Shown here one piece after another: positions 8,691 to 44,086 of a stretch of DNA of 64,000 nucleotides. The stretch lies in assembly GCF_024700885.2 (NCBI RefSeq), contig NZ_CP117016.1; one strand, given 5' to 3'. The DNA is from Escherichia coli. Its GTDB lineage: Bacteria > Pseudomonadota > Gammaproteobacteria > Enterobacterales > Enterobacteriaceae. The notes under the pieces were generated by a model. The model worked only from the letters and a program-made list of their open reading frames with translations. It had not been told where the DNA came from and searched no databases. The translations under genes and the position numbers were made by a program. Position 1 is the first letter of the stretch. Every line of letters begins with the position of its first letter.

Positions 8691-9929
8691 TTATTCCGCG
8701 TTTTCGTGAATATGTTTGCTGCTGGCGGGTAGTAAACCATCGGCACGGAACATCGCTTTAATCCCACGAATCGCCTGACGAATACGGTCGCGGTTTTCAA
8801 TCAGTGCAAAGCGAACATGCGTGTCGCCGTAGTCGCCAAAGCCAATCCCCGGAGAGACACAGACCTTCGCTTCGTTCAGCAGCTTCTTGGCAAATTCCAG
8901 CGAGCCCATGGCAGCATACGGTTCCGGGATTTTCGCCCAGACATACATCGAAGCCTTCGGCATTTCGACCATCCAGCCCGCTTCATGCAGCCCTTTTACC
9001 AGTACATCACGGCGGCGTTTGTACTGTTCAGCAATGTCGCGCACGCACTGTTGATCGCCCTCCAGCGCCGCAATCGCTGCCACCTGCAACGGCGTAAAGG
9101 TGCCGTAATCGTGATAGCTTTTAATACGTGCCAGCGCGCTGACCAGCGTTTTGTTGCCAACCATAAAGCCGATACGCCAGCCCGCCATGTTGTAGCTTTT
9201 CGACAGCGTAAAGAACTCGACCGCCACATCGCGTGCACCCGGCACCTGCATGATTGACGGCGCTTTCCAGCCATCGTAGACGATATCGGCATAGGCCAGG
9301 TCATGGACCACCAGCACATCGTAGCGTTTCGCCAGCGCCACAACCTTCTCAAAGAATTCCAGCTCCACGCATTGCGCGGTTGGATTCGACGGGAAGCCGA
9401 GGATCATCATCTTCGGTTTCGGATAACTTTCGCGAATGGCGCGTTCCAGTTCGTTGAAGAAATCGACACCTTCCACCAGCGGCACTGAGCGTACCTGCGC
9501 CCCGGCAATCACCGCGCCGTAAATATGAATCGGGTAGCTTGGATTAGGCACCAGTACAGTGTCACCATGATCCAGCGTCGCCAGCATCAGATGCGCCAGT
9601 CCCTCTTTCGAACCAATGGTGACGATGGCTTCTGATTCCGGGTCGATCTCGACGTCGTAGCGATCCTGATACCAGCGGGAAATGGCGCGACGTAACCGCG
9701 GAATGCCGCGTGAAGTAGAGTAACCATGCGTGTCCGGTCGCTGGGCCACCGTACATAATTTTTCGACGATATGCGGCGGAGTCGCACCGTCCGGGTTACC
9801 CATACTGAAATCGATAATATCTTCGCCGCGCCGACGCGCAGCCATTTTCAGTTCAGCGGTAATATTAAAAACGTAGGGCGGGAGACGATCAATGCGCGTA
9901 AAGCGACGTTCAAGGCGAGTGTCAGCCAT
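8691..9929 (-). CDS. alaC: Glutamate-pyruvate aminotransferase (PLP-dependent aminotransferase class I)
   Basis: 412-aa [51 protein letters not shown]; aminotransferase fold motifs. Confidence 0.9.
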
Positions 9930-10305
9930 AATTTCCTCAGATTAACGTTAGCGCCCGGACCGTCCGAGCGACGCTGCCACGATGGTGGCTGTTTTGAAAA
10001 TAGCCTGATTAATTTCTGTCTGTCCAGCGTTTTAGAACATTTTTATCAATGGCTTTAAATGAGGAACTCCACTTCAAAAACAGGAAATTTATCTGCGCTA
10101 ACAAGAAAATTACCACTCATTTTATTAACATTATAATTTCAATAAATTTACCAAGCAGATGTGCATTATCAAGAGATGCATTGCTAATACACCATTTATC
10201 TTTCAATCCCCTTTTAAAATTGTGGTTTTTCCTCAAAAACGGCCTGCTGGTCATCAGCCTTCAGGTTACCTATCATAGAGGTTTAATCCTTATTCAGAGT
10301 CACCC

Positions 10306-12003
10306 GTGCACGAAATATTCAACATGCTGCTGGCGGTCTTCGATCGGGCAGCGTTAATGCTTATCTGCCTGTTCTTTCTCATCCGTATCCGCCTGTTTCG
10401 CGAACTGTTGCACAAGTCGGCACACTCACCGAAAGAGCTGCTCGCCGTTACCGCCATTTTCTCGCTGTTCGCCCTGTTCAGCACCTGGTCCGGCGTTCCC
10501 GTAGAAGGCTCGCTGGTGAACGTACGTATTATCGCGGTGATGTCAGGCGGGATTCTTTTTGGCCCGTGGGTAGGCATTATTACCGGCGTGATCGCAGGTA
10601 TTCACCGGTATTTAATTGATATCGGCGGCGTGACGGCGATCCCCTGCTTTATCACCAGCATTCTGGCGGGTTGTATATCGGGCTGGATCAACCTGAAAAT
10701 CCCCAAAGCACAGCGCTGGCGCGTCGGTATTCTCGGCGGCATGTTATGTGAAACGTTGACCATGATTCTGGTGATTGTCTGGGCACCAACTACCGCGTTG
10801 GGGATCGATATCGTCTCTAAAATCGGGATTCCAATGATCCTCGGTAGCGTCTGTATCGGCTTTATTGTGCTGCTGGTGCAAAGCGTTGAGGGCGAAAAAG
10901 AGGCCAGCGCCGCGCGGCAGGCCAAGCTGGCGCTGGATATCGCCAACAAAACGCTGCCGCTGTTTCGCCATGTCAATAGCGAGTCATTACGCAAAGTTTG
11001 TGAAATTATCCGCGATGATATTCATGCCGATGCGGTGGCGATTACCAATACCGATCATGTGCTGGCCTATGTTGGCGTGGGTGAACACAACTATCAGAAT
11101 GGCGATGACTTCATTAGCCCGACTACCCGACAGGCGATGAATTACGGAAAAATCATCATTAAAAACAATGATGAAGCCCACCGCACACCAGAGATTCATT
11201 CCATGCTGGTGATCCCATTGTGGGAGAAAGGCGTTGTGACCGGAACACTGAAAATTTACTACTGCCACGCGCATCAGATTACGTCATCATTACAGGAAAT
11301 GGCGGTCGGTCTGTCGCAAATCATCTCCACGCAACTGGAGGTTTCACGCGCCGAGCAGCTACGTGAAATGGCAAATAAGGCAGAGCTTCGCGCCCTGCAA
11401 AGCAAAATTAATCCCCATTTCCTGTTTAACGCTTTGAACGCTATTTCATCGTCGATCCGTCTGAATCCGGATACCGCTCGCCAGCTGATCTTTAATCTGT
11501 CGCGTTATCTACGCTATAACATTGAATTAAAAGACGATGAGCAAATCGATATCAAAAAAGAGCTGTATCAAATTAAAGACTATATTGCCATTGAGCAGGC
11601 CCGCTTTGGCGACAAGCTGACGGTTATCTATGATATTGATGAAGAGGTGAATTGCTGCATTCCCAGCCTGCTGATCCAACCGTTGGTGGAGAACGCCATT
11701 GTCCACGGTATTCAGCCTTGCAAAGGTAAAGGCGTTGTCACCATCAGCGTTGCAGAGTGCGGTAATCGGGTACGCATTGCGGTGCGGGATACCGGGCACG
11801 GCATCGATCCAAAAGTCATTGAGCGGGTCGAAGCGAACGAAATGCCGGGCAATAAAATTGGCCTGCTGAATGTCCATCATCGCGTGAAGTTATTGTATGG
11901 CGAGGGACTGCATATCCGCCGTCTGGAACCAGGAACGGAAATTGCGTTTTACATTCCTAACCAACGCACCCCTGTCGCCTCACAGGCTACGTTATTGCTT
12001 TGA
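10306..12003 (+). CDS. ypdA: Sensor histidine kinase, LytS-type (multi-TM N-terminus plus HATPase)
   Basis: 565-aa ORF, GTG start; hydrophobic N-terminal half and C-terminal kinase motifs ([17 protein letters not shown]). Confidence 0.85.
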
Positions 12004-12017
12004 GCCGGAGTGATATT

Positions 12018-12752
12018 GTGAAAGTCATCATTGTTGAAGACGAATTCCTGGCACAACAGGAACTGAGCTGGCTAATTAAAGAGCACAGCCAGATGGAGAT
12101 TGTCGGCACCTTTGACGACGGTCTGGACGTGTTGAAGTTTTTGCAGCATAACCGCGTCGACGCCATTTTTCTGGATATCAATATTCCGTCGCTGGACGGT
12201 GTGTTGCTGGCGCAAAACATCAGCCAGTTCGCCCATAAACCGTTTATTGTGTTCATCACCGCGTGGAAAGAACATGCGGTAGAAGCGTTTGAACTGGAAG
12301 CGTTTGACTACATTCTCAAACCGTATCAGGAGTCACGCATTACCGGGATGCTGCAAAAACTGGAAGCGGCCTGGCAGCAACAGCAGACCAGCAGTACGCC
12401 TGCCACGACGGTAACGCGTGAGAATGACACCATTAATCTGGTGAAAGATGAGCGAATAATCGTCACGCCAATTAACGATATCTATTACGCCGAAGCGCAC
12501 GAGAAAATGACCTTTGTCTATACGCGGCGTGAATCCTACGTAATGCCGATGAACATTACCGAGTTTTGCAGCAAGCTGCCGCCATCGCATTTTTTCCGCT
12601 GCCATCGCTCATTTTGTGTCAATCTGAACAAAATCCGCGAGATCGAACCGTGGTTTAATAACACCTATATTCTGCGGCTGAAAGATCTGGATTTTGAAGT
12701 GCCAGTCAGCCGCAGCAAAGTTAAAGAATTCCGCCAGTTAATGCATCTTTAA
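12018..12752 (+). CDS. ypdB: LytTR-family response regulator
   Basis: Receiver domain MKVIIVEDEFLAQQEL plus LytTR output domain; GTG at 12018 gives the expected 244 aa (six-frame ORF starts at 12000). Confidence 0.85.
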   Translation: MKVIIVEDEFLAQQELSWLIKEHSQMEIVGTFDDGLDVLKFLQHNRVDAIFLDINIPSLDGVLLAQNISQFAHKPFIVFITAWKEHAVEAFELEAFDYILKPYQESRITGMLQKLEAAWQQQQTSSTPATTVTRENDTINLVKDERIIVTPINDIYYAEAHEKMTFVYTRRESYVMPMNITEFCSKLPPSHFFRCHRSFCVNLNKIREIEPWFNNTYILRLKDLDFEVPVSRSKVKEFRQLMHL

Positions 12753-12764
12753 TCGGGAACTTTC

Positions 12765-13622
12765 ATGAAAGCACCAGGCTTGCCCGCCGATCAACAATTT
12801 TTCGCCGATCTGTTCAGCGGCCTGGTGCTTAACCCGCAACTACTGGGGCGCGTCTGGTTTGCCAGCCAGCCTGCCTCGTTACCGGTGGGCAGTTTATGTA
12901 TTGATTTTCCCCGTCTGGATATCGTGCTGCGCGGCGAATACGGCAATCTGCTGGAAGCAAAGCAGCAACGTATGGTTGAAGGAGAAATGCTGTTTATTCC
13001 AGCGCGCGCGGCTAATTTACCGATCAACAACAAACCGGTGATGCTGTTAAGCCTGGTGTTCGCACCGACCTGGCTTGGGTTATCGTTTTACGATAGCCGT
13101 ACCACGTCGTTGTTGCATCCTGCTCGCCAGATCCAACTTCCCAGCCTGCAACGCGGCGAAGGTGAAGCAATGCTTACTGCCCTCACCCATCTTAGCCGTT
13201 CGCCGCTGGAGCAGAATATCATTCAGCCGCTGGTGTTAAGTTTGCTGCATCTTTGCCGCAACGTGGTGAATATGCCGCCGGGTAATTCGCAGCCGCGCGG
13301 AGATTTTCTTTATCACAGCATTTGTAACTGGGTTCAGGATAATTATGCCCAGCCGCTCACCCGTGAGAGCGTGGCGCTGTTTTTTAATATCACGCCCAAT
13401 CATCTGTCAAAACTGTTTGCGCAGCATGGAACAATGCGTTTTATCGAATATGTGCGTTGGGTGCGAATGGCGAAGGCGAGGATGATTTTGCAGAAATATC
13501 ATCTGTCGATTCATGAAGTGGCGCAGCGTTGCGGCTTTCCGGACAGCGACTATTTTTGTCGCGTCTTCCGGCGTCAGTTTGGCCTGACGCCAGGAGAGTA
13601 CAGCGCCCGTTTTCAGGGCTAA
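12765..13622 (+). CDS. ypdC: AraC-family transcriptional regulator
   Basis: 285-aa ORF with C-terminal AraC-type HTH (YVRWVRMAKARMILQKYHLSIHEVAQRCGFPDSDYFCRVFRRQFGLTPGEY). Confidence 0.8.
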   Translation: MKAPGLPADQQFFADLFSGLVLNPQLLGRVWFASQPASLPVGSLCIDFPRLDIVLRGEYGNLLEAKQQRMVEGEMLFIPARAANLPINNKPVMLLSLVFAPTWLGLSFYDSRTTSLLHPARQIQLPSLQRGEGEAMLTALTHLSRSPLEQNIIQPLVLSLLHLCRNVVNMPPGNSQPRGDFLYHSICNWVQDNYAQPLTRESVALFFNITPNHLSKLFAQHGTMRFIEYVRWVRMAKARMILQKYHLSIHEVAQRCGFPDSDYFCRVFRRQFGLTPGEYSARFQG

Positions 13623-13624
13623 CG

Positions 13625-16120
13625 TCAGAAGGTTAATTCTGTTTCCAGCAGCGTCAGGATGCTTTGTGCATCTTGCGCGGCGAACAGCGACTGGCGGAAG
13701 TTTTTATTCACCAGTTTGCGCGCCAGCTGCGAGAAGACTTTCACATGGTTCATCCCTTCGTTAGCACCCAACGTCAGCATGATCACCAGTTCGACTTCGC
13801 CCATTTCTGACTGCCAGTCAACCGGTTTCACCAGCCGGGCAATGCTGATACTGGAATGACGGATCCACTGAGATTTGGTGTGCGGGATCGCTACGCCAAA
13901 ACCAACGCCGGTGGTAACAATCTCTTCCCGTTGCCAGACATCCTCTTCCAGCTCGAACGGATGTTCAGTGCGCCCGTTAACGCCGAGGTTACCGCACAGG
14001 AACTGGATCGCCTGCTCTTTATTGCTAAAGGCCTGATCAACGAAGATATTCTCCAGCGCCAGCAGCGGGCGAACGTCTTCTTCCGGCGTAAAGGCGGTGA
14101 GTAACGCTTCAATCTCCTGCGCGCTGCGACATTCACACGCCTGACGCGCCAGTTCCCGACACGCCTCGCTATCCAGTTGACGAAGCTGGCTTTTCACCGC
14201 CGGAATGCGCGGGCTACTCATACTCAGCTCATCCAAGCCCAGCCCAAGCAGTAGCGGCAGATAACGACTTTCACCGCCCAGTTCACCGCAAATACCTACC
14301 CATTTTCCGCGCTGATGCGCAGTGGTAATAATCTGCTGCAACATGCGCAGGAACGATGGCGTAATCGGGTTATACAGCGGCGATACGCGCGGGTTATTAC
14401 GATCGACCGCATACAGATACTGGGTCATATCGTTAGAACCGATACTGAAGAAATCGACCTCATCGCAGAAGTGGTCGATGATGTAGCACACCGACGGCAC
14501 TTCCACCATGATACCCAGCGTAATCGTCTCTGCATGACGCAGGCCATCGCGCTTAAGCTCAACGATCGCTTTTTGGATCTCGCCCTTCACCCATAAGATC
14601 TGATCGAGGCTGTGAACCATTGGGATCATCAACTGGGCGTTGCCGAAACTGGCGGCGCGCAAAATGGCCCGCAGTTGAGTGCGGAACAGGCCAGCAAATT
14701 CCGGGTAAATACGTACCGCGCGATAGCCGAGGAACGGGTTCTCTTCCTGGGGAATGTTGAGATAAGGAATGCTTTTATCGCCGCCGATGTCCATCGTGCG
14801 GAAGATAATCGGCTTGTCGCCCGCTGCCAGTAGCACCTGCTGGTAGGCTTCAAATTGCTCCTGCTCGTCCGGCGCGCTGTCGCGATCCATATAGAGCATT
14901 TCGGTACGGAACAGCCCGACGCCTTCCGCGCCGTTGGCAAACGCGCCAGGCGCTTCCAGAGCGGTGCCAATATTCGCCGCGATATCAATGCGCTTGTTAT
15001 CACGGGAATAGGCCAGCTGCGCGGCAGCCTGCGCCTGCTGCTGCTGACGTTTATCTGCCAGCGTCTGCGCAACCTGATAATAACCGCTCACCGCGTCATC
15101 AGGATTAATCGCCAGCACGCCGCACTGGGCGTCAAGCACTGCCGGTTGCCCGGCATAGCGCGCGATCGCATCCAGCGGCAAGCCACTTAGTACCGGGATC
15201 GCCGAGGCGCGGGCCAGAATCAGGGTATGCGAGGTGCGCCCGGTTTTCTCCAGAATCATGCCCGCAAGATTTTTTAAATCGAGGCTCAAAAACTGGCTTG
15301 GGGTTAAATCCTCGGCCACCAGAATAGTCGGTTTTTCCAGCACCAGATTGTTGCGCGGCTTCAGTTCCGGCCAGGTGATATGCAGCAACTGTTCGCTGAT
15401 ATCGCGAATGTCGCTGACCCGCTCGCGCAGATAATCGCTGGCAGAAGCAGATAGTTTGGCGCAAACCTGCTCCATATTGCTGATGATCGCCGCCCCCAGT
15501 CCCTGATGCTGTTCTGCCATAAGGCGACGGATATTGCCTGCAAATTCATCATCCTGAATCAGCGACAAATGGGCGCTGAGGATAGTTTTGCTTTCGCCGT
15601 CACGCTCGCGCAGTTGCTGGTTCAGTTGCTCGGCAAGCGTTGCCAGGCTGTGCTCCAGCCGGGTGGAGTCTTGCGCACTGGCCGGGATTGCCCGATAACT
15701 GTCGAGGCTGTCGCTCTGTAACAGGGTCAGCGTACCCACGCCGACGCCGCTTGCCAGCACATTGCCGTACAGTAAATCAGGATTCAGACGGCTTAATGAA
15801 CGCGGCAGCGGATGCGCCGTCAGTTCTACCTGCGTTGGCTGGACGCTGTCGCTGTCGATAAAGCGCACCTGGATGTACTCTTCCAGCACGCGCCGCGCCT
15901 GCTCTTCATCGCTGCCGCTAATGTTCAGGCTGCAACTGTCATTAAATAGGGTGCCGGTGCCAATCAGCGCCAGCGAGCTTTTCGCATCTGCCTTTGCGTT
16001 CTGGCGATGGTTGATGAAGGTGATTTCGCTTTGCCACTGGCTGCACTGTTCTTTAAGTTCCCACGCCGGACGAGCATGCAGACCGTTAGGCAGAGGACAG
16101 AGAAATTGAATCGTTAGCAT
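13625..16120 (-). CDS. fryA: Multiphosphoryl transfer protein of a fructose-like PTS (HPr, Enzyme I and IIA domains fused)
   Basis: 831-aa ORF; N-terminal HPr-like domain, central PEP-utilising Enzyme I region (GGRTSHTLILARA), C-terminal IIA-like domain. Confidence 0.85.
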   Translation of the reverse strand: MLTIQFLCPLPNGLHARPAWELKEQCSQWQSEITFINHRQNAKADAKSSLALIGTGTLFNDSCSLNISGSDEEQARRVLEEYIQVRFIDSDSVQPTQVELTAHPLPRSLSRLNPDLLYGNVLASGVGVGTLTLLQSDSLDSYRAIPASAQDSTRLEHSLATLAEQLNQQLRERDGESKTILSAHLSLIQDDEFAGNIRRLMAEQHQGLGAAIISNMEQVCAKLSASASDYLRERVSDIRDISEQLLHITWPELKPRNNLVLEKPTILVAEDLTPSQFLSLDLKNLAGMILEKTGRTSHTLILARASAIPVLSGLPLDAIARYAGQPAVLDAQCGVLAINPDDAVSGYYQVAQTLADKRQQQQAQAAAQLAYSRDNKRIDIAANIGTALEAPGAFANGAEGVGLFRTEMLYMDRDSAPDEQEQFEAYQQVLLAAGDKPIIFRTMDIGGDKSIPYLNIPQEENPFLGYRAVRIYPEFAGLFRTQLRAILRAASFGNAQLMIPMVHSLDQILWVKGEIQKAIVELKRDGLRHAETITLGIMVEVPSVCYIIDHFCDEVDFFSIGSNDMTQYLYAVDRNNPRVSPLYNPITPSFLRMLQQIITTAHQRGKWVGICGELGGESRYLPLLLGLGLDELSMSSPRIPAVKSQLRQLDSEACRELARQACECRSAQEIEALLTAFTPEEDVRPLLALENIFVDQAFSNKEQAIQFLCGNLGVNGRTEHPFELEEDVWQREEIVTTGVGFGVAIPHTKSQWIRHSSISIARLVKPVDWQSEMGEVELVIMLTLGANEGMNHVKVFSQLARKLVNKNFRQSLFAAQDAQSILTLLETELTF

Positions 16121-16144
16121 AACCGCTCCGGGTTAATCAGGAGA

Positions 16145-17182
16145 TCATCTGAAATCCGTCAGTTGAACAACCGTCTCACGCGTAAGACGTTGAATAAGGG
16201 CAGATAAAAGTTGCTGCATCTGCAAAATGTCGCGACAATCGGCAATCGATGCCGCGCAATGTCCGTGGCGGGTGGCAGGCCCCATCACCACTGTGGGTAC
16301 GCCAGTGCCGGTTAAGTGCACCGCCCCACCGTCCGTGCCACCGTTGCTGAACATATCCGCCTGCAACGGCACGCCAATTTCTGCCGCCACGGTTTCAATC
16401 CACGCGGTAAGTTTTGGCGGCGCAATCAGCGATTTATCGCTTAACACCAGCATCGGGCCGTTACCAATCTGACGATGGTTAGCCGCGCCATAATCAAAGT
16501 TTTTCGCCCAGCAGGCGGTATCAAGCACAATGGCGACATCCGGCGACACCGCGCGGGTGGCAGTTTGCCCGCCGCGTAATCCCACCTCTTCGCTGGAGCT
16601 GGCCACCAGCCACACTTCCGCAGGCAGTTCGGCATCATGCAGCTCACGTAGTAACGTCACCAGCAGATAGCAACCGAGGCGGTCATCAAAGGCTTTCCCC
16701 ATCACTCGCTGGTGGGGTAGAACCTGAAAAGTGGTATCGAAGGTGACGCGATCGCCTGGACGAATTCCCGCCTGCATCACTTCGTCATACGAGCGCGCGC
16801 CAATGTCCACGCGCATGGCGCTAACATCATTCCCCTGCCGGTCGTCGTCAAGCAGGCCTGGAATTTTGCACTCTTCACGGGTGGTGATGCGCACCGGCTG
16901 CAGCTGGCGGGCAGCCATGCGCACATTGCCAACCGGCAGCACGTCAATAGCCCCTTCGCGGGAGATGCTGCGCACCATAAATCCCACTTCATCCATATGC
17001 GCACAGATCATCACCTTCGGACCTGTCGACTCATTGAGTCGGATCAGCACCGATCCCAGCCCATCAAATCGCACTTCTTTTTGCAGGCGATCCGCTTCTT
17101 CCAGCAGGATCTGCCGTACTTCCTGTTCCGAGGAGGCGATCGCATCTGCCTCGCTCAACGCTTTTAATAGCGATAAATCCAT
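16145..17182 (-). CDS. ypdE: M42-family aminopeptidase
   Basis: 345-aa ORF with peptidase M42-like motifs; embedded in the fry operon. Confidence 0.8.
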
Positions 17183-18267
17183 TATGCCTCTCCCGTGAGC
17201 AACACTGTTTTCGGCATGGCGTAGAGCACTTCTGCTCCTTGCGGGGTAACCAGCACAACATCTTCGATGCGCACGCCCCCTTGCCCTGGCAAATAAATCC
17301 CCGGCTCCACGGTCAGCAACATGCCTGGCTGTAGCGTCGTGGTGTCCCGCGGTGAAAAACGCGGATCTTCATGGACTTCAATGCCGATAGCGTGACCGGT
17401 GTTATGACCGAAATAGTCGCCATAACCTGCTTCTGTAATGACCCGGCGCGCGGCGTCGTCAACCTGCTGGCAGCGCACGCCGGGGCGAATTGCAGAGATT
17501 GCTGCGAGCTGTGCTTGCAGGACAATCTGATAGACGTTAAACAGCGGGTGGGATTCGGCACTTACCCCTTCGCCATTCACCAGCAAGGTGCGCGTCATAT
17601 CAGAGCAGTAGCCCTGATACAGCGCACCAAAATCAAGAGTGACAAACTCGCCCGCTGCAACAATCTTGTCGCTGGCTTTACCGTGCGGCAGCGCGCCACG
17701 CCAGCCGCTGGCGACAATGGTATCGAAAGAGGCTTTTTCTGCGCCCTGCTGGCGCATAAACCACTCCAGTTCAGCGGCTATCTCGCGCTCGCTCATCCCC
17801 GCCTGAATAAAGCGGCGAATATGCTCAGCACCGCGATCGGCAATCCCACAGGCGAGGCGGATTTTCTCCACCTCCTCTGGCGTTTTGATTTGCCGCAGCA
17901 CATCCGGCGTGGCGCTAACCAGTTTCGCATTGAGTTCAGACTGCCAGCGGTGCGCGGTTTCCCAACTCACCTGCTGGCCTTCAAAACCGAGCGTTTGCAA
18001 CTGCTCATCGGCAATGATTTGATTGACGATAGTGGTAAGCGTGTTCGTCGCGTCAAGCAAATGCAGCTGGTAGCCTTGCGTGCGGGCTTCTACATCCGCG
18101 TAGTAGCGCGAATCCACCAGAATGTGCGCACTTACACGGCTAATCACCACATAGCCTGATCCGGTGGAGATCCCCAGATGCGGCTGTTTGTTCTGCCGTG
18201 AGGAGAGAAGCACCGCATCCAGTTGTTGCGCCTTAAGCCAGTCGCGCAGCGAAGCGAGTAATGTCAT
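17182..18267 (-). CDS. ypdF: Xaa-Pro aminopeptidase (M24 family)
   Basis: 361-aa ORF with M24 motifs ([13 protein letters not shown]); stop overlaps the ypdE start. Confidence 0.8.
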
Positions 18268-18281
18268 CAGGATTGTCCTTC

Positions 18282-19529
18282 TTACAGGCTATCGATTAAC
18301 AATTTGCCTTTACGGAACATCATCAGACGCAGGAACACCACCATCAGCGCAGTAATGACTGCCCCCAGCGCGATCCCCGCCATGTAGACGCCGAGGTTAG
18401 TGACCAGTGGCCATGCCCAGATAGCGGATTCCGGGAACCATTGCACTGCGCCCAGCCAGACTGCAGCGGTTGAGCCGACAATCGCGCCAACCATATAGGA
18501 CGGAATGGCGGTGATGGGACTTTCCAGTGCAAACGGAATCGCACCTTCACTGATCCCCATAAAGGCAAGGAACATGGCGGTTTTACCCTGCGGATAAAGC
18601 TGAGCGTTGAACAGGCGTTTGCCGGTTAAACGACGGTCAATAATGGTCGCCAGACCCAGACCAATCGGCGGAATAACAATAGCGATGGAACGTGCGGTGA
18701 CCGGTAATACGTGGTCCGTGGTAAAGCTGAAGGCAACGAAACCTGCGGCTTTGTTGATCGGGCCACCAAGGTCGATTGCTGTCGCCGCGGCGATCCCCAT
18801 CGCATACATTAGCGCGCCCTTCTCACCTGCGGCAGTCAGCACGGCACGAATACCGCCGTTGATCCAGCCACCAAAGGGGGTGATGACGTAGTACATCGCC
18901 AGCATGACAAAAATGGCGGAAAGAATCGGTAGCAAAAATGTGGTTTTGAACGCTAACAGGAAATCCGGTAACTGGATTTTCTGGTTCATCCACTTCACAA
19001 GGTAACCCGCAACGATAGAAATAATCAGGGCACCAATGAAGGTGGACGGCACCGGCGAAGAGGTCGCCCATTGCATCGTGCTGGGATCGAAGTTCAGCAG
19101 TTGCGTCGGCTGGGTAGACATCAAGCCGCCGATAAAACCAGCCGGGAACGCCAGTTTGCCACCGATAGAGTTCGCCACAAATGCAGCAAACATCGGAATG
19201 GCGAAACCAAACAACACGCCGCCGAAGGATTGCGACAGCCAGGCAAATTTCAGTAAGGAAAGGTCGAAACCGGAGAATTTCCCGCTATTAAGAGCATCCA
19301 TGATGCCGATATCAGCAGGAATTTTAAGCCAGCTATAAGCAATCAGCTGGCTGAAAGCGAGGATCACACCACCCATAATTAAGGTCGGCACCATGCGTGA
19401 AATCCCTGACATCACATGCTGCGGGAGTTCACCCCAGAAGCTGCTTTTAGAGGCCTGCGGATTCTTAACTGCCGCTGCCGCACCGGATGCGCCAGGCACA
19501 ACGGTTGCACTGCGTTTTTTAATGGCCAT
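18282..19529 (-). CDS. fryC: PTS fructose-like permease IIC component
   Basis: 415-aa polytopic membrane protein with EIIC-Fru-type sequence. Confidence 0.85.
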
Positions 19530-19550
19530 AACAATTATCCCTGTCGAATA

Positions 19551-19877
19551 TTACTGTTGTTCAGAGGCAATCATCTCTTCGATTTCTTTGATGATGCCCG
19601 CAGCGTTTTTAATTGCGTCCTGCAAAGTGATTTCATAAACGTCGCGTGATTCGAAACGTTCGTTATCTTCCGGGGTAACCGCCACGGAGTGGATGATGAT
19701 GGTCGCTTCGGCGATATCCTGCGCGGTCAGGCGATTCTGGATGCCGTCCGCGCCCTGAGTTTCAATTTTCACTTCATAGCCTGCTTCCACCGCCGCTTCT
19801 TCCAGCGCCTGGGCTGCCATAAAGGTGTGAGCCAGACCCATCGGGCAGGCACATAAAGCAATCAGTTTCTTACTCAT
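19551..19877 (-). CDS. fryB: PTS fructose-like IIB component
   Basis: MSKKLIALCACPMGLAHTF with the IIB phosphocysteine motif; internal ATG at 19877 gives 108 aa (six-frame ORF extends to 19928). Confidence 0.8.
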   Translation of the reverse strand: MSKKLIALCACPMGLAHTFMAAQALEEAAVEAGYEVKIETQGADGIQNRLTAQDIAEATIIIHSVAVTPEDNERFESRDVYEITLQDAIKNAAGIIKEIEEMIASEQQ

Positions 19878-20049
19878 CGTTAATTCCTCGTTCAGTGATA
19901 GTTGACGAGTGAAATTATGAACGTGCAAAACAAATCGCCGTTACCAGACAAATAATGCATTTACTGGAGAATTAATCCCGCTGTACGGAAGTGTGACGCA
20001 GGTCGGCCTTGTGAGGAGGACACAAAGAAAAATTGAATTAACTGTATGA

Positions 20050-20082
20050 TTTAAAAGATTATCGGGAGAGTTACCTCCCGAT
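20050..20082 (-). terminator. Putative terminator downstream of glk
   Basis: Stem tatcgggag / ctcccgata (20059-20082) followed on the minus strand by a T-rich tract. Confidence 0.4.
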
Positions 20083-20096
20083 ATAACAGGAAGGAT

Positions 20097-21062
20097 TTAC
20101 AGAATGTGACCTAAGGTCTGGCGTAAATGTGCACCGGAACCGAGAAGACCCGGATTGTCATGGACGATGAGATACACCGGAATATCATGGACATATTCTT
20201 TAAAGCGCCCTTTATCTTCAAATGCGGCACGGAAACCAGAGGCTTTGAAGAACTCAAGGAAGCGCGGCACGATACCACCCGCAATAAACACGCCGCCAAA
20301 TGTCCCGAGATTGAGCGCCAGATTGCCGCCAAAACGGCCCATAATGACGCAAAACAGCGACAACGCGCGGCGGCAATCGGTGCAGCTGTCAGCCAGCGCA
20401 CGTTCGGTAATATCTTTTGGCTTGAGATTTTCTGGCAGGCGGTTGTCGGCTTTCACAATCGCGCGATACAAATTCACCAGCCCAGGACCAGAAAGCACGC
20501 GCTCTGCCGAAACATGACCAATTTCTGCACGCAGTATTTCGAGGATAATGCCCTCTTCTTCACTATTCGGCGCAAAATCAACGTGACCGCCTTCGCCTGG
20601 CAAGCTTACCCAACGCTTATCGACATGGACCAGATGCGCAACCCCAAGCCCCGTTCCGGCACCGTAAACCGCAATAGGCTTACCTTCGACCGGTTCTGCG
20701 CCACCAAACTGAATCAGATGCTCTTTTTTCAGCATCGGGATCGCCATCGATACAGCGGTAAAATCGTTAATAATTTCCAGATGGCTAAAACCGAGATTCT
20801 TTTTCATTTCGGCAATTGAGAACGCCCAGGTATGGTTGGTCATTGCCACCCAGTCACCGGTAATTGGGCAAGCAATGGCAATACAGCCGTCTTTCACCTC
20901 GACCTTATGTTCTTCAAGATAAACGCGAATGACCGCTTCGAGGCTGGGGTAATCAAGCCCTGAATAGGTCTTAGCCTGCGAGATTTCACCACTGGCAATA
21001 TCACACAGAGCAAGACGTGCGTTGGTGCCGCCCACATCACCGACTAATGCATACTTTGTCAT
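20097..21062 (-). CDS. glk: Glucokinase
   Basis: 321-aa [27 protein letters not shown]/glucokinase ATP-binding motif. Confidence 0.9.
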
Positions 21063-21265
21063 TCTTCAACTGCTCCGCTAAAGTCAAAATAATTCTTTCT
21101 CACACTGTAAATACCTGGGGGCATAACAACAACGCCGGAAAGGCAGGCTCCCTGTAAATATCGATCTGGGTCACACAATTACTTTATCGTTTCAGCACCA
21201 ATTGCAGCGATGCCTTTTTGCAAGCTGGGCAAACTAAGTATCTGACCCCGCATAAGGAATAGAAC

Positions 21266-22522
21266 ATGCTCCATCCGCGAGCCAGAACCATGTTGTTATT
21301 ATCGCTCCCCGCCGTGGCAATTGGGATTGCGTCCAGTCTTATTCTGATTGTGGTGATGAAAATCGCCTCGGTATTACAGAATTTGCTCTGGCAACGACTG
21401 CCGGGAACTCTGGGGATAGCTCAGGATTCACCTTTCTGGATCATCGCCATATTAACGCTAACAGGTATTGCGGTGGGGTTGGTTATCCGTTTCAGCCAGA
21501 GGCATGCTGGACCAGACCCCGCCTGTGAACCGCTGATCGGCGCACCGGTTCCGCCCTCTGCGCTACCTGGACTTATCGTAGCATTAATTCTCGGTCTTGC
21601 TGGCGGCGTCAGCCTGGGGCCGGAACATCCGATCATGACCGTCAATATCGCCCTTGCGGTTGCCATTGGCGCTCGTCTGTTACCGCGCGTCAACCGAATG
21701 GAGTGGACTATTTTAGCCTCTGCCGGCACCATCGGCGCGCTGTTTGGCACACCTGTTGCGGCGGCGTTGATATTTTCGCAAACCTTAAATGGCAGTAGTG
21801 AAGTTCCGCTATGGGATCGTCTTTTTGCGCCATTAATGGCGGCAGCAGCTGGTGCACTTACTACCGGATTATTTTTCCATCCCCATTTTTCACTGCCCAT
21901 TGCGCATTACGGACAAATGGAAATGACCGATATTCTCAGCGGTGCAATTGTCGCGGCGATTGCCATCGCAGCAGGGATGGTCGCCGTATGGTGCTTACCA
22001 CGGTTGCACGCGATGATGCATCAAATGAAAAATCCGGTGCTCGTGCTGGGTATTGGCGGATTTATTCTCGGTATTCTGGGGGTTATTGGTGGACCAGTTT
22101 CGCTGTTTAAAGGGCTGGATGAGATGCAGCAGATGGTGGCAAATCAGGCTTTCAGCACCAGCGATTACTTTTTGCTGGCGGTAATTAAACTTGCCGCCCT
22201 GGTCGTTGCTGCCGCCAGTGGCTTTCGCGGTGGGCGAATCTTCCCGGCAGTGTTTGTCGGCGTGGCATTAGGGTTGATGCTGCATGAGCACGTTCCCGCC
22301 GTTCCAGCAGCAATAACCGTTTCCTGCGCTATTCTCGGCATCGTGCTGGTGGTAACACGCGATGGCTGGTTAAGTCTTTTTATGGCGGCAGTCGTTGTAC
22401 CCAATACCACATTGCTACCGCTGCTCTGTATCGTCATGCTTCCGGCATGGCTGTTATTAGCAGGTAAGCCGATGATGATGGTCAATCGTCCGAAGCAACA
22501 GCCACCCCACGATAACGTTTAG
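21266..22522 (+). CDS. yfeO: Putative ion-channel membrane protein (ClC-like)
   Basis: 418-aa highly hydrophobic ORF; position between glk and ypeC. Confidence 0.75.
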
Positions 22523-22636
22523 CAAAAAATGCTCTCCTTTATGATTTAAGAGTTATGGCGATGATACGGGGCTTTACCTCCCCGTAATATTGCGTTAACA
22601 GGCCGCTGACGGCTTCGATCGTGAAGGAGAATAACA

Positions 22637-22963
22637 ATGTTCAGGTCACTGTTTCTGGCGGCCGCCCTGATGGCATTTACCCCGCTTGCGGCAAACGCAG
22701 GTGAAATCACCCTACTGCCATCAATCAAATTACAAATTGGCGATCGCGATCATTACGGTAATTACTGGGACGGTGGTCACTGGCGCGACCGTGACTACTG
22801 GCATCGCAATTATGAATGGCGTAAGAACCGCTGGTGGCGTCATGATAATGGCTACCATCGTGGCTGGGATAAGCGTAAAGCGTATGAGCGTGGCTATCGT
22901 GAAGGCTGGCGCGATCGTGACGATCATCGTGGAAAAGGCCGCGGACATGGACATCGCCATTAA
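22637..22963 (+). CDS. ypeC: Secreted small protein rich in Arg, Asp, His, Trp and Tyr (DUF2502-like)
   Basis: 108-aa ORF with signal peptide [21 protein letters not shown] and a repetitive charged/aromatic C-terminus. Confidence 0.7.
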
Positions 22964-22987
22964 ACACATTCGCCAATGGAGCACAAT

Positions 22988-23005
22988 GCCTGATGCGACG
23001 CTAGT
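22988..23005. repeat. Left half of a REP/palindromic unit interrupted by the IS insertion
   Basis: gcctgatgcgacgctagt; together with 24438-24459 it reconstitutes a REP of the same type as the intact copy at 46393-46428. Confidence 0.6.
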
Positions 23006-23047
23006 TGAACTGCACCCCAAATGTTGGACATAATCTGACATCTGAAG

Positions 23048-23578
23048 GTGCAGTTTATGAAACATTCATTTGAAGTAAAACTTGCCGCTGTAAATCATTA
23101 CCTGGCCGGTCATGCAGGCATCATTTCTACGGCAAAACTCTTTCAACTTTCTCACACCAGCCTCTCACACTGGATTAATCTTTTTCTTCTTCACGGTCCT
23201 CGGGCACTGGATTGCAGACACAAGCGTAGCTATTCTCCTGAAGATAAACTTTGCGTGGTTCTTTATGCTCTCGGGCATTCTGAGTCTCTACCCCGGGTAG
23301 CTGCCCGGTTTAACATTCCCAGCCACAACACGGTTAAAAACTGGATAAAAGGCTACCGCAAATCTGGTAATGAGGCCTTTATCAGGCGCAGGAAGGAGAA
23401 AAGCATGACCCGTTCTGATGATACCCATGAAAACGAGGCAAACATGACGCCGGAAGAGATGAAGAATGAGCTGCGTTATCTTCGCGCAGAAAATGCATAT
23501 CTGAAAGCCATGCAGGAGCATCTCCTGGAAAAAAAGCGCCAGGAGCTGGAGAAAAAACGAAAGTCATCCGGAGCCTGA
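23048..23578 (+). CDS. IS3-family transposase OrfA (HTH DNA-binding part)
   Basis: 176-aa ORF with HTH and leucine-zipper-like C-terminus; A6C slippery run at 23552-23558 near its 3' end. Confidence 0.8.
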   Translation: MQFMKHSFEVKLAAVNHYLAGHAGIISTAKLFQLSHTSLSHWINLFLLHGPRALDCRHKRSYSPEDKLCVVLYALGHSESLPRVAARFNIPSHNTVKNWIKGYRKSGNEAFIRRRKEKSMTRSDDTHENEANMTPEEMKNELRYLRAENAYLKAMQEHLLEKKRQELEKKRKSSGA

Positions 23579-23682
23579 GGTGCGGACACTGCCAGCCTGA
23601 CCTGTTAAAGGCTGCAGGGCTGGCCAGAAGCACGCTGTACTACCAGCTGTCACTGCAGAAGGCTAAGGACAAGTATGCTGAT

Positions 23683-24535
<853 letters not shown>

Positions 24536-41506: not shown

Positions 41507-41764
41507 ATGTTCCAGCAAGAAGTTACCATTACCGCTCCGAACGGTCTGCACACCCGCCCTGCTGCCCAGTTTGTAAAAGAAGCTAAGGGCTTCACTTCTG
41601 AAATTACTGTGACTTCCAACGGCAAAAGCGCCAGCGCGAAAAGCCTGTTTAAACTGCAGACTCTGGGCCTGACTCAAGGTACCGTTGTGACTATCTCCGC
41701 AGAAGGCGAAGACGAGCAGAAAGCGGTTGAACATCTGGTTAAACTGATGGCGGAACTCGAGTAA
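41507..41764 (+). CDS. ptsH: Phosphocarrier protein HPr
   Basis: 85-aa [32 protein letters not shown] with active-site His15 context. Confidence 0.95.
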
Positions 41765-41808
41765 TTTCCCGGGTTCTTTTAAAAATCAGTCACAAGTAAG
41801 GTAGGGTT

Positions 41809-43536
41809 ATGATTTCAGGCATTTTAGCATCCCCGGGTATCGCTTTCGGTAAAGCTCTGCTTCTGAAAGAAGACGAAATTGTCATTGACCGGAAAAAAAT
41901 TTCTGCCGACCAGGTTGATCAGGAAGTTGAACGTTTTCTGAGCGGTCGTGCCAAGGCATCAGCCCAGCTGGAAACGATCAAAACGAAAGCTGGTGAAACG
42001 TTCGGTGAAGAAAAAGAAGCCATCTTTGAAGGGCATATTATGCTGCTCGAAGATGAGGAGCTGGAGCAGGAAATCATAGCCCTGATTAAAGATAAGCACA
42101 TGACAGCTGACGCAGCTGCTCATGAAGTTATCGAAGGTCAGGCTTCTGCCCTGGAAGAGCTGGATGATGAATACCTGAAAGAACGTGCGGCTGACGTACG
42201 TGATATCGGTAAGCGCCTGCTGCGCAACATCCTGGGCCTGAAGATTATCGACCTGAGCGCCATTCAGGATGAAGTCATTCTGGTTGCCGCTGACCTGACG
42301 CCGTCCGAAACTGCACAGCTGAACCTGAAGAAGGTGCTGGGTTTCATCACCGACGCGGGTGGCCGTACTTCCCACACCTCTATCATGGCGCGTTCTCTGG
42401 AACTGCCTGCTATCGTGGGTACCGGTAGCGTCACCTCTCAGGTGAAAAATGACGACTATCTGATTCTGGATGCCGTAAATAATCAGGTTTACGTCAATCC
42501 AACCAACGAAGTTATTGATAAAATGCGCGCTGTTCAGGAGCAAGTGGCTTCTGAAAAAGCAGAGCTTGCTAAACTGAAAGATCTGCCAGCTATTACGCTG
42601 GACGGTCACCAGGTAGAAGTGTGCGCTAACATTGGTACGGTTCGTGACGTTGAAGGTGCAGAGCGTAACGGCGCTGAAGGCGTTGGTCTGTATCGTACTG
42701 AGTTCCTGTTCATGGACCGCGACGCGCTGCCCACTGAAGAAGAACAGTTTGCTGCTTACAAAGCAGTGGCTGAAGCGTGTGGCTCGCAGGCGGTTATCGT
42801 TCGTACCATGGACATCGGCGGCGACAAAGAGCTGCCATACATGAACTTCCCGAAAGAAGAGAACCCGTTCCTCGGCTGGCGCGCTATCCGTATCGCGATG
42901 GATCGTAAAGAGATCCTGCGCGATCAGCTCCGCGCTATCCTGCGTGCCTCAGCTTTCGGTAAATTGCGCATTATGTTCCCGATGATCATCTCTGTTGAAG
43001 AAGTACGTGCACTGCGCAAAGAGATCGAAATCTACAAACAGGAACTGCGCGACGAAGGTAAAGCGTTTGACGAGTCAATTGAAATCGGCGTAATGGTGGA
43101 AACACCGGCTGCCGCAACAATTGCACGTCATTTAGCCAAAGAAGTTGATTTCTTTAGTATCGGCACCAATGATTTAACGCAGTACACTCTGGCAGTTGAC
43201 CGTGGTAATGATATGATTTCACACCTTTACCAGCCAATGTCACCGTCCGTGCTGAACTTGATCAAGCAAGTTATTGATGCTTCTCATGCTGAAGGCAAAT
43301 GGACTGGCATGTGTGGTGAGCTTGCTGGCGATGAACGTGCTACACTTCTGTTGCTGGGGATGGGTCTGGACGAATTCTCTATGAGCGCCATTTCTATCCC
43401 GCGCATTAAGAAGATTATCCGTAACACGAACTTCGAAGATGCGAAGGTGTTAGCAGAGCAGGCTCTTGCTCAACCGACAACGGACGAGTTAATGACGCTG
43501 GTTAACAAGTTCATTGAAGAAAAAACAATCTGCTAA
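41809..43536 (+). CDS. ptsI: PTS Enzyme I (phosphoenolpyruvate-protein phosphotransferase)
   Basis: 575-aa ORF with [13 protein letters not shown] phosphohistidine motif. Confidence 0.95.
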
Positions 43537-43576
43537 TCCACGAGATGCGGCCCAATTTACTGCTTAGGAGAAGATC

Positions 43577-44086
43577 ATGGGTTTGTTCGATAAACTGAAA
43601 TCTCTGGTTTCCGACGACAAGAAGGATACCGGAACTATTGAGATCATTGCTCCGCTCTCTGGCGAGATCGTCAATATCGAAGACGTGCCGGATGTCGTTT
43701 TTGCGGAAAAAATCGTTGGTGATGGCATTGCTATCAAACCAACTGGAAACAAAATGGTCGCGCCTGTAGACGGCACCATTGGTAAAATCTTTGAAACCAA
43801 CCACGCGTTCTCTATCGAATCTGATAGCGGCGTTGAACTGTTCGTCCACTTCGGTATCGACACCGTTGAACTGAAAGGCGAAGGCTTCAAGCGTATTGCT
43901 GAAGAAGGTCAGCGCGTGAAAGTTGGCGATACTGTCATTGAATTTGATCTGCCGCTGCTGGAAGAGAAAGCCAAGTCTACCCTGACTCCGGTTGTTATCT
44001 CCAACATGGACGAAATCAAAGAACTGATCAAACTGTCCGGTAGCGTAACCGTGGGTGAAACCCCGGTTATCCGCATCAAGAAGTAA
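43577..44086 (+). CDS. crr: PTS glucose-specific Enzyme IIA (EIIA-Glc)
   Basis: 169-aa [42 protein letters not shown]. Confidence 0.95.

Follow-up and report, generated by a model that had tools for sequence, protein, structure and literature searches.

The fry operon of Escherichia coli: a conserved fructose-family phosphotransferase system with two embedded aminopeptidases and a possible sugar-peptide substrate

Why should a sugar transporter be encoded together with two aminopeptidases? The question is raised by the fryBC-ypdFE-fryA operon of Escherichia coli, which occupies positions 13625-19877 in a stretch of 64,000 nucleotides from contig NZ_CP117016.1 (the whole stretch is hereafter called the window). 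The operon is long known and not new. It has the genes of a fructose-family phosphoenolpyruvate (PEP)-dependent phosphotransferase system (PTS) and, among these, genes for an M24 and an M42 peptidase. The occurrence of aminopeptidases beside the same transporter in distant gut bacteria suggests the import of a sugar-linked amino acid or peptide and not of plain fructose. With a probability of roughly one half, the substrate of the Fry system is a glycosyl-amino acid or a glycopeptide which is trimmed in the cytoplasm after its uptake. The genes of the operon, in the order of their transcription, are as follows:

19551-19877, minus strand: fryB, PTS Enzyme IIB of the fructose family (ORF of 108 aa), first gene of the operon
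18282-19529, minus strand: fryC, the membrane permease (PTS Enzyme IIC), on which substrate specificity depends (ORF of 415 aa)
17182-18267, minus strand: ypdF, cytoplasmic M24B metallo-aminopeptidase of the Xaa-Pro type (ORF of 361 aa)
16145-17182, minus strand: ypdE, cytoplasmic M42 (TET-type) aminopeptidase (ORF of 345 aa)
13625-16120, minus strand: fryA (ptsA), fusion of HPr, Enzyme I and IIA(Fru) (ORF of 831 aa), last gene of the operon

These five co-directional open reading frames (ORFs) fill the interval. An earlier note on this DNA had listed them as fryA-ypdE-ypdF-fryC-fryB. The ORFs and their names agree with the ORF positions, the Pfam domains and the RefSeq annotation of an identical record, which has fryB, fryC, ypdF, ypdE and a gene called ptsP at the same places; the genes in the list were thus right, but the order was that of the plus strand. 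As the operon lies on the minus strand, fryB is its first gene and transcription runs fryB>fryC>ypdF>ypdE>fryA. The tight packing described in the note is real, with gaps of 21 nt (fryB-fryC), 14 nt (fryC-ypdF), -1 nt (ypdF-ypdE) and 24 nt (ypdE-fryA), and the overlap it reported between the ypdE start and the ypdF stop amounts to a single base. At this junction (gcaTAATGgat) the last A of the ypdF stop codon TAA is the first base of the ypdE ATG, and the two genes are translationally coupled. The ribosome-binding site GAGGAA precedes the ATG of fryB. The name ptsP given to fryA by RefSeq/PGAP is proper to EI-Ntr, encoded elsewhere on the chromosome, and is a trap for automated readers.

FryB matches PF02302 (71 bits) and TIGR00829 (92.2 bits, cut-off 76.85). 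Its phospho-Cys11 lies in CACPMGLAHTFMAA, with the motif CP(T/M)G(I/L)AHT, and C11 and H17 are among the residues that are invariant in 77 homologues. The permease FryC matches the Pfam family PTS_EIIC (PF02378) with 51.9 bits against a cut-off of 30.7, while its score with the NCBIfam model TIGR01427 (PTS_IIC_fructo), 157.3 bits, is a hair below the cut-off of 157.55. It is not an equivalog of FruA (99 bits versus 793), FrwC (138 versus 426), FrvB (88 versus 806) or MngA (103 versus 763), and 131 of its residues are invariant across 80 homologues.

FryA is modular in structure, Pfam placing its HPr domain at residues 6-84, Enzyme I at 119-650 and EIIA_2 at 687-826. The HPr part (PF00381, 54 bits) has H15 in GLHARPA. 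The Enzyme I part (TIGR01417, 505 bits versus a cut-off of 341.7) is 39% identical to PtsI across the entire Enzyme I, with H298 in GRTSHTLILAR aligning with PtsI H189 and the Cys of ICGELGG with PtsI C502. The IIA part (PF00359, 110 bits; TIGR00848, 141.6 bits versus 103.5) has its active-site H747 in GVAIPHT. From these domains and residues, fry is predicted to be a self-contained PEP-dependent PTS, for which FryA gives Enzyme I, HPr and IIA, FryB gives IIB and FryC the permease.

The two peptidases belong to the families that the earlier note had named. YpdF possesses a Creatinase_N (PF01321) and a Peptidase_M24 (PF00557) domain and scores 817 bits against the equivalog model NF007310 (versus 393). 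Its metal ligands D212, D223, H292, E321 and E335 are invariant in 64 homologues, as are H195 and H299, and there is a crystal structure under the title 'Aminopeptidase YpdF' (5CNX). YpdE has the Peptidase_M42 domain (PF05343, 288 bits) and scores 680 bits with the equivalog NF007421 (versus 412); its metal ligands H62, D166, E198, E199, D221 and H308 are invariant in 49 homologues, and the structure of the Shigella protein is available (1YLO). In work by Zheng et al. in 2005, YpdF is said to be an Xaa-Pro aminopeptidase with limited Met-aminopeptidase activity and YpdE a broad aminopeptidase, both on ordinary peptides. YpdE is a characterised M42 aminopeptidase and one of three M42 enzymes in E. 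coli (Dutoit et al., PMC3511314).

A 7.5-kb stretch with the operon has matches of 100% identity in several complete E. coli genomes, and at least 80% of it is present in 5414 of 5426 complete E. coli genomes (99.8%), nearly all at 95-99% identity. Pairwise ratios of nonsynonymous to synonymous substitution rates (dN/dS) were obtained with orthologues of Citrobacter, Salmonella diarizonae, Kluyvera, Pseudocitrobacter, Superficieibacter and Enterobacter. These are 0.015-0.04 for fryB, 0.03-0.07 for fryC, 0.06-0.14 for ypdE, 0.05-0.15 for fryA and 0.11-0.16 for ypdF, with about 0.03 for the comparison gene glk. All five fry genes are under purifying selection (dN/dS 0.01-0.16) and are conserved genes, not chance ORFs. 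The operon is 'cryptic' in expression only and has no decay; its description as conserved in the earlier note is upheld by both the genome count and the dN/dS values. In competition in mouse bladder, strain UTI89 deleted for ypdE is at a disadvantage (competitive index 0.30; PMC8767336), a defect which suggests an in vivo role, and Cpx activation results in a mild rise of ypdF and fryA (PMC2731931).

Relatives of the transporter across phyla

A scan with FryC, taking one genome per species, gave 80 loci with homologues of 50-100% identity, in which ORFs were called and compared with the E. coli proteins, the remainder being clustered. An M24 gene comes directly after the IIC gene in 57 of the 80 loci and an M42 gene as well in 46, and the order is always the same. 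The 37 loci of the Enterobacterales type have the full fryB-fryC-ypdF-ypdE-fryA set wherever the contig is long enough, with the gene for the AraC-family regulator YpdC usually convergent at the fryA end. Hosts of the full set include Escherichia, Citrobacter, Kluyvera, Salmonella arizonae and diarizonae, Enterobacter and Lelliottia, and further Pluralibacter, Hafnia and Serratia. FryC homologues of 50-66% identity are also present in Clostridia, Erysipelotrichia, Negativicutes and Fusobacteria. In the loci of Clostridia and Erysipelotrichia, the IIC proteins are 56-66%, the M24 proteins about 45% and the M42 proteins 40-49% identical to those of E. coli. Arrangements other than that of E. coli were found as follows:

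16 loci (Enterocloster, Hungatella, Ruminococcaceae, Caproiciproducens, Breznakia): PRD/Mga-type regulator-IIA-IIB-IIC-M24-M42-lyase
9 loci (C. difficile, Geosporobacter, Caloramator, Pelosinus, Lucifera and others): (M20)-regulator-IIA-IIB-IIC-M24-lyase
4 loci (Rahnella): LacI-M20-IIB-IIC-M24
1 locus (Streptobacillus, L067): IIC followed directly by the lyase, the lyase being alone
14 loci (Hungatella, Leptotrichia, Sebaldella and others): IIA-IIB-IIC-GH38

The lyase, present in 26 loci, is a C-S lyase of the PatB family (TIGR04350, 340-357 bits versus a cut-off of 340). Among proteins of solved structure, its best match is E. coli MalY, with 330 bits when the C. asparagiforme protein is compared. 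The E. coli operon and those of most Enterobacterales lack a PatB/MalY lyase as their last gene. Such a lyase does follow fryA in a metagenome-assembled genome (MAG) of Enterobacterales (L036), where it is a MalY orthologue (596 bits). The M20 enzyme, found in 12 loci, is a Sapep/PepV-like Mn-dipeptidase with 217 bits to the model of the dipeptidase for Cys-Gly-3M3SH (3M3SH, 3-methyl-3-sulfanylhexan-1-ol). There is also a class I phosphomannose isomerase (PMI) at a distance of 2.5-4.5 kb in six peptidase/lyase loci, from about three independent lineages.

In the 14 sister loci with a glycoside hydrolase of family 38 (GH38), this enzyme is closest to the mannosylglycerate hydrolase MngB (616 bits, under the equivalog cut-off), and the transporters are 51-62% identical to FryC. 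None of the 80 loci has both GH38 and the peptidase/lyase genes, and no GH38 was found at fry in any Enterobacterales locus. A neighbour-joining tree of IIC has the GH38-linked and the peptidase/lyase-linked transporters interleaved. The peptidase/lyase operons, which end right after the lyase, have no glycosidase genes, and neither SIS-domain deglycases nor fructosamine kinases are among the recurrent neighbour families of the 80 loci. The linkage of PTS, M24 and M42 has outlived transfer between phyla, an exchange of regulator (AraC, PRD/Mga, LacI) and an exchange of relay (FryA or a stand-alone IIA), which argues strongly that these genes serve one pathway.

A number of further observations concern single loci. 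In L036 (L036:1-21000), ypdC lies upstream of the fry genes and is co-directional with them, and further genes upstream code for a second M24 peptidase, two M20 peptidases, an Ldh_2 dehydrogenase and an ABC ATPase; the region looks like a larger utilisation island for peptides or conjugates. The idea that a MalI-like repressor might come after the MalY orthologue there was rejected, as Pfam gives NicO and DUF1007 domains, and fry therefore did not simply replace malX at this place. 'PatB' matches at 6-9 kb in loci of Escherichia, Citrobacter, Pseudocitrobacter and Salmonella lie outside the operon, and that of E. coli, about 8 kb from fryC, is alaC, a generic aminotransferase, and was likewise rejected. 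Neighbour families of low recurrence (c69, c70, c101-c130 and others) were dropped for lack of conservation.

Three distant M42 representatives were looked at in their context, on short contigs only. M42 peptidases 37-44% identical to YpdE lie between PTS IIA and IIB genes in two loci (L082:873-2582; L084:582-2428), in operons of other PTS families (lactose/cellobiose type and EIIA_2 type), so that the association of M42 with PTS reaches beyond the Fry clade. Broken copies were seen for ypdE in Escherichia sp. MOD1-EC7003 (L005:12348-13303), for fryA in Citrobacter amalonaticus S646 (L013:13411-15896) and for the IIC gene in a Ruminococcaceae MAG (L081:10001-11187); these could be true pseudogenes or assembly errors. 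A contig labelled as Chryseobacterium sp. 18061 (L027, CACSKA010000002.1) has a typical Enterobacteriaceae fry-ypdC locus, with FryC 74% and FryA 76% identical to the E. coli proteins, and is probably a contamination or a mislabelled assembly.

What the operon may import

A sugar-peptide substrate is the simplest reading of these arrangements, because the place that GH38 holds in the relatives is taken by peptidases and a beta-lyase. FryBC would import a conjugate of a sugar with an amino acid or peptide and phosphorylate the sugar. The conjugate would then be trimmed at its free N-terminus by YpdF (for Xaa-Pro bonds) and YpdE (with its broad range). In the relatives outside Enterobacteriaceae, the final Cys or Ser would be taken off through beta-elimination by a MalY/PatB-type lyase dependent on pyridoxal phosphate (PLP). 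In E. coli, which is without an operon lyase, the peptidases may suffice, the step may be taken over in trans by MalY or a different enzyme, or the pathway may be incomplete. There is an enzymatic precedent for the PLP-dependent beta-elimination of S-glycosyl-L-cysteine in LmbF (PMC11794154). As to the sugar, the best guess from the GH38 sister systems and the PMI linkage, thin evidence as this is, would possibly be mannose.

A more far-reaching proposal can be put forward only as a tentative one, and we doubt it more than we believe it. Fry would be the enterobacterial branch of an undescribed cross-phylum PTS pathway, in which peptide trimming (M24, M42, M20) and MalY/PatB beta-elimination replace the glycosidase, with MalY acting in trans in E. 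coli. The substrates of such a pathway might be alpha-mannosyl-Ser/Thr/Cys conjugates of yeast, Bacteroides or host glycoproteins, and its lyase step would release a sugar 6-phosphate (or thio-sugar), pyruvate and ammonia.

Several points weigh against a sugar-peptide substrate. No report of a substrate, inducer or transport activity of Fry was found in the literature searched (open-access papers and bioRxiv); within this literature the earlier note's statement that the substrate is undefined stands, and a 2023 review gives fryB and fryC merely as 'fructose-like' (PMC10305011). The last step is unaccounted for, since the E. coli operon has neither lyase nor glycosidase. The identity of the sugar rests on the six PMI-linked loci and the GH38 sister systems, and FryC scores no better with the MngA model than with those of other fructose-family proteins. 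Gene neighbourhood cannot separate O-, S- and N-linked conjugates. PatB/MalY enzymes are promiscuous, acting as cystathionase, as cysteine desulfhydrase and, in the case of L. sakei, as racemase, and the lyase could therefore simply detoxify released cysteine. As regards control of the operon, chromatin immunoprecipitation with exonuclease treatment (ChIP-exo) detected no site bound by YpdC in the conditions that were tested (PMC8464067).

Best placed among the competing explanations, and still an unlikely one, is a plain sugar PTS. FryABC would take up a simple sugar (a ketose or hexose) or a polyol, ypdF and ypdE being housekeeping passengers. Every PTS part is of the fructose family, the peptidases reportedly act on ordinary peptides, and lyase and glycosidase are both missing from the E. 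coli operon. Against it stand the order IIC-M24-M42, which is kept between phyla at 40-66% protein identity through changes of regulator and relay, the translational coupling of ypdF and ypdE, and the mutual exclusion of GH38 and the peptidase/lyase sets among close IIC relatives.

It is improbable that the substrate is an aminoacyl-amino-sugar with an amide link between the two parts, for example the cysteinyl-glucosamine (Cys-GlcN) of bacillithiol or mycothiol turnover, from which the aminopeptidases would free a sugar phosphate, the lyase then degrading the cysteine. This would account for E. coli managing without a lyase. Aminopeptidases require a free alpha-amine only, MalY/PatB enzymes have cysteine desulfhydrase activity, and the operons are without a glycosidase. 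Fructose-family IICs, however, are not known to transport derivatives of glucosamine, mannose is indicated by both the GH38 sister systems and the link to PMI, and the Streptobacillus locus has the lyase without a peptidase.

The presence of a dedicated fusion of Enzyme I, HPr and IIA, though ptsHI-crr is 22 kb away, could also point to a regulatory phospho-relay, FryA being an Enzyme I paralogue like PtsP or DhaM that signals to YpdC, the peptidases or others. A growth substrate is not known, and an in-frame deletion of fryA raises fitness in prolonged culture in lysogeny broth (PMC5364489). There is little to recommend a relay, however, when IIB and IIC are complete, IIC with its 131 invariant residues and a dN/dS of 0.03-0.07, and when the Firmicute versions have only a stand-alone IIA with PRD regulators, as is typical of catabolic PTS operons. 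Finally, a remnant acquired horizontally from Firmicutes, now without its lyase, silent and of no function in E. coli, has small chances, for although the 56-66% identity of FryC to clostridial proteins suggests horizontal transfer, the lyase missing in E. coli is present after fryA in L036, ypdE and fryA are sporadically broken (L005 and L013) and little or no laboratory expression is reported, the operon is kept in 99.8% of complete E. coli genomes, its five genes have dN/dS far under 1, its promoter blocks are conserved and loss of ypdE costs fitness in the bladder (PMC8767336).

Control region and surroundings of the operon

The region upstream of fryB was aligned for 19 Enterobacterales, from E. 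coli to Hafnia and Serratia, and the footprint of conserved blocks, together with the features that delimit the operon, is given here:

19914-19919, minus strand: CATAAT, -10 hexamer of a putative fryB promoter, kept in 19 of the 19 aligned upstream regions
19940-19968, minus strand: conserved block of 29 nt, TCCAGTAAATGCATTATTTGTCTGGTAAC, putative activator site for YpdC, from the phylogenetic footprint
19988-20004, minus strand: conserved block GA-N6-TCACAcTTC from the footprint, with its centre near -92 relative to the inferred start of transcription
20060-20083, minus strand: terminator hairpin of glk with a 10-bp stem and T-run, upstream limit of the fry transcription unit
12765-13622, plus strand: ypdC, AraC-family regulator (HTH_18 and HTH_AraC), convergent with fryA and candidate activator of the operon

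The operon is flanked by ypdA-ypdB-ypdC on one side and by glk on the other (RefSeq annotation of the identical record). It has its own upstream region, as the hairpin with its T-run ends glk at 20083-20060. The -10 hexamer lies about 36 nt before the fryB ATG, and no recognisable -35 was found for this promoter. A scan upstream of fryB for the sigma-70 consensus gave seven matches where 5.6 were expected, none of them convincing; with the -35 absent, the CATAAT promoter was missed by the scan and was revealed by phylogenetic footprinting only. The 29-nt block, which is unique in the window, ends at the -35 position; within it, TCCAGTAA and TCTGGTAA lie 20 nt from each other. Taken together, the conserved -10, the missing -35 and the abutting block with repeats would fit the classic layout of a class II activator of the AraC family. 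The consensus of the cyclic AMP receptor protein (CRP) is TGTGA-N6-TCACA, and the block further upstream resembles a CRP site with one good half, making it a candidate site.

YpdC itself matches HTH_18 with 72.5 bits. Its gene has been given as the third of a ypdA-ypdB-ypdC transcription unit (table in PMC2731931). It adjoins fryA in 30 Enterobacterales loci, many of them without ypdAB nearby, and thus follows fry rather than the two-component system that senses pyruvate. From this gene context ypdC seems to belong functionally with fry. The silence of the operon in the laboratory is probably that of a promoter with a good -10 and no -35, which would need YpdC with an inducer and perhaps CRP.

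The stop codons of ypdC (plus strand) and fryA (minus strand) are 2 bp apart (13622-13625 of the window), and in other Enterobacterales the spacing is 1-4 bp or the genes even overlap. No terminator-like hairpin was found at this convergent end for either transcript. Each transcript must extend in antisense into the other gene, which makes mutual interference of regulator and operon possible.

Elsewhere in the window, ptsH, ptsI and crr of the general PTS are found at 41507-44086, about 22 kb from fry. IS1397, an insertion element of the IS3 family with two frameshifted ORFs, sits between ypeC and mntH (23048-24405), as in strain 1190, and its insertion there is probably strain-specific. No Rfam RNA families were found at 9000-24000 of the window.

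Comparable systems and meaning

Components of Fry have counterparts in several known systems. Like Fry, the E. coli operons frvABXR and sgc are cryptic PTS operons with an undefined substrate and an embedded M42 gene each. They encode the other two M42 proteins of E. coli, FrvX and SgcX, and are PTS operons according to EcoCyc. Unlike them, Fry has an additional M24B peptidase and its own fusion of Enzyme I, HPr and IIA. In MngAB (a PTS for 2-O-alpha-mannosyl-D-glycerate with GH38) and in the Listeria-type IIA-IIB-IIC-GH38 systems, a glycoside enters through a fructose-family PTS and, as the 6-phospho-glycoside, is cut in the cytoplasm. Fry differs in having peptidases in place of the glycosidase, and FryC, as mentioned, is not an MngA equivalog.

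A cysteine conjugate is processed by Staphylococcus hominis, in which Cys-Gly-3M3SH is reportedly taken up by a peptide transporter and cleaved by a dipeptidase and then by the PatB C-S lyase. The pairing of an M20 dipeptidase with a PatB lyase is that of the Fry-like clusters outside E. coli, whereas the S. hominis pathway has no PTS and no sugar, and the Fry system of E. coli is without M20 and PatB. The malXY operon of E. coli pairs a PTS permease (MalX, IIBC) with the beta-C-S lyase MalY, a member of the same family as the Fry-linked lyases; MalX, unlike FryC, is of the glucose family, and there are no peptidases. For MalXY, too, no natural substrate is known. Precedents for the import of sugar-amino acid conjugates are frl of E. 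coli and fra and gfr of Salmonella, gfr importing through a mannose-family PTS. In contrast to Fry, these rely on kinases and SIS-domain deglycases, and no deglycase was found at or near fry in the 80 loci.

Even the best-studied bacterium has several orphan PTS systems, of which Fry is one, and the pairing of peptidases with sugar transporters is a puzzle. The comparative pattern narrows the candidates from a fructose-like sugar to glycosyl-Ser/Thr/Cys and short glycopeptides, compounds that can be synthesised. In this pattern the same transporter has a GH38 mannosidase as its partner in some loci and, in others, M24/M42 peptidases plus a MalY-like lyase, which links the puzzles of Fry and MalY. 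If the proposal holds, it would mean a lyase-based harvesting of glycopeptides in gut Clostridia, C. difficile and Enterobacteriaceae, and, should MalY act in trans, it would give MalY its long-sought physiological role. The operon in question is core to E. coli, and its ypdE gene contributes to colonisation of the bladder.

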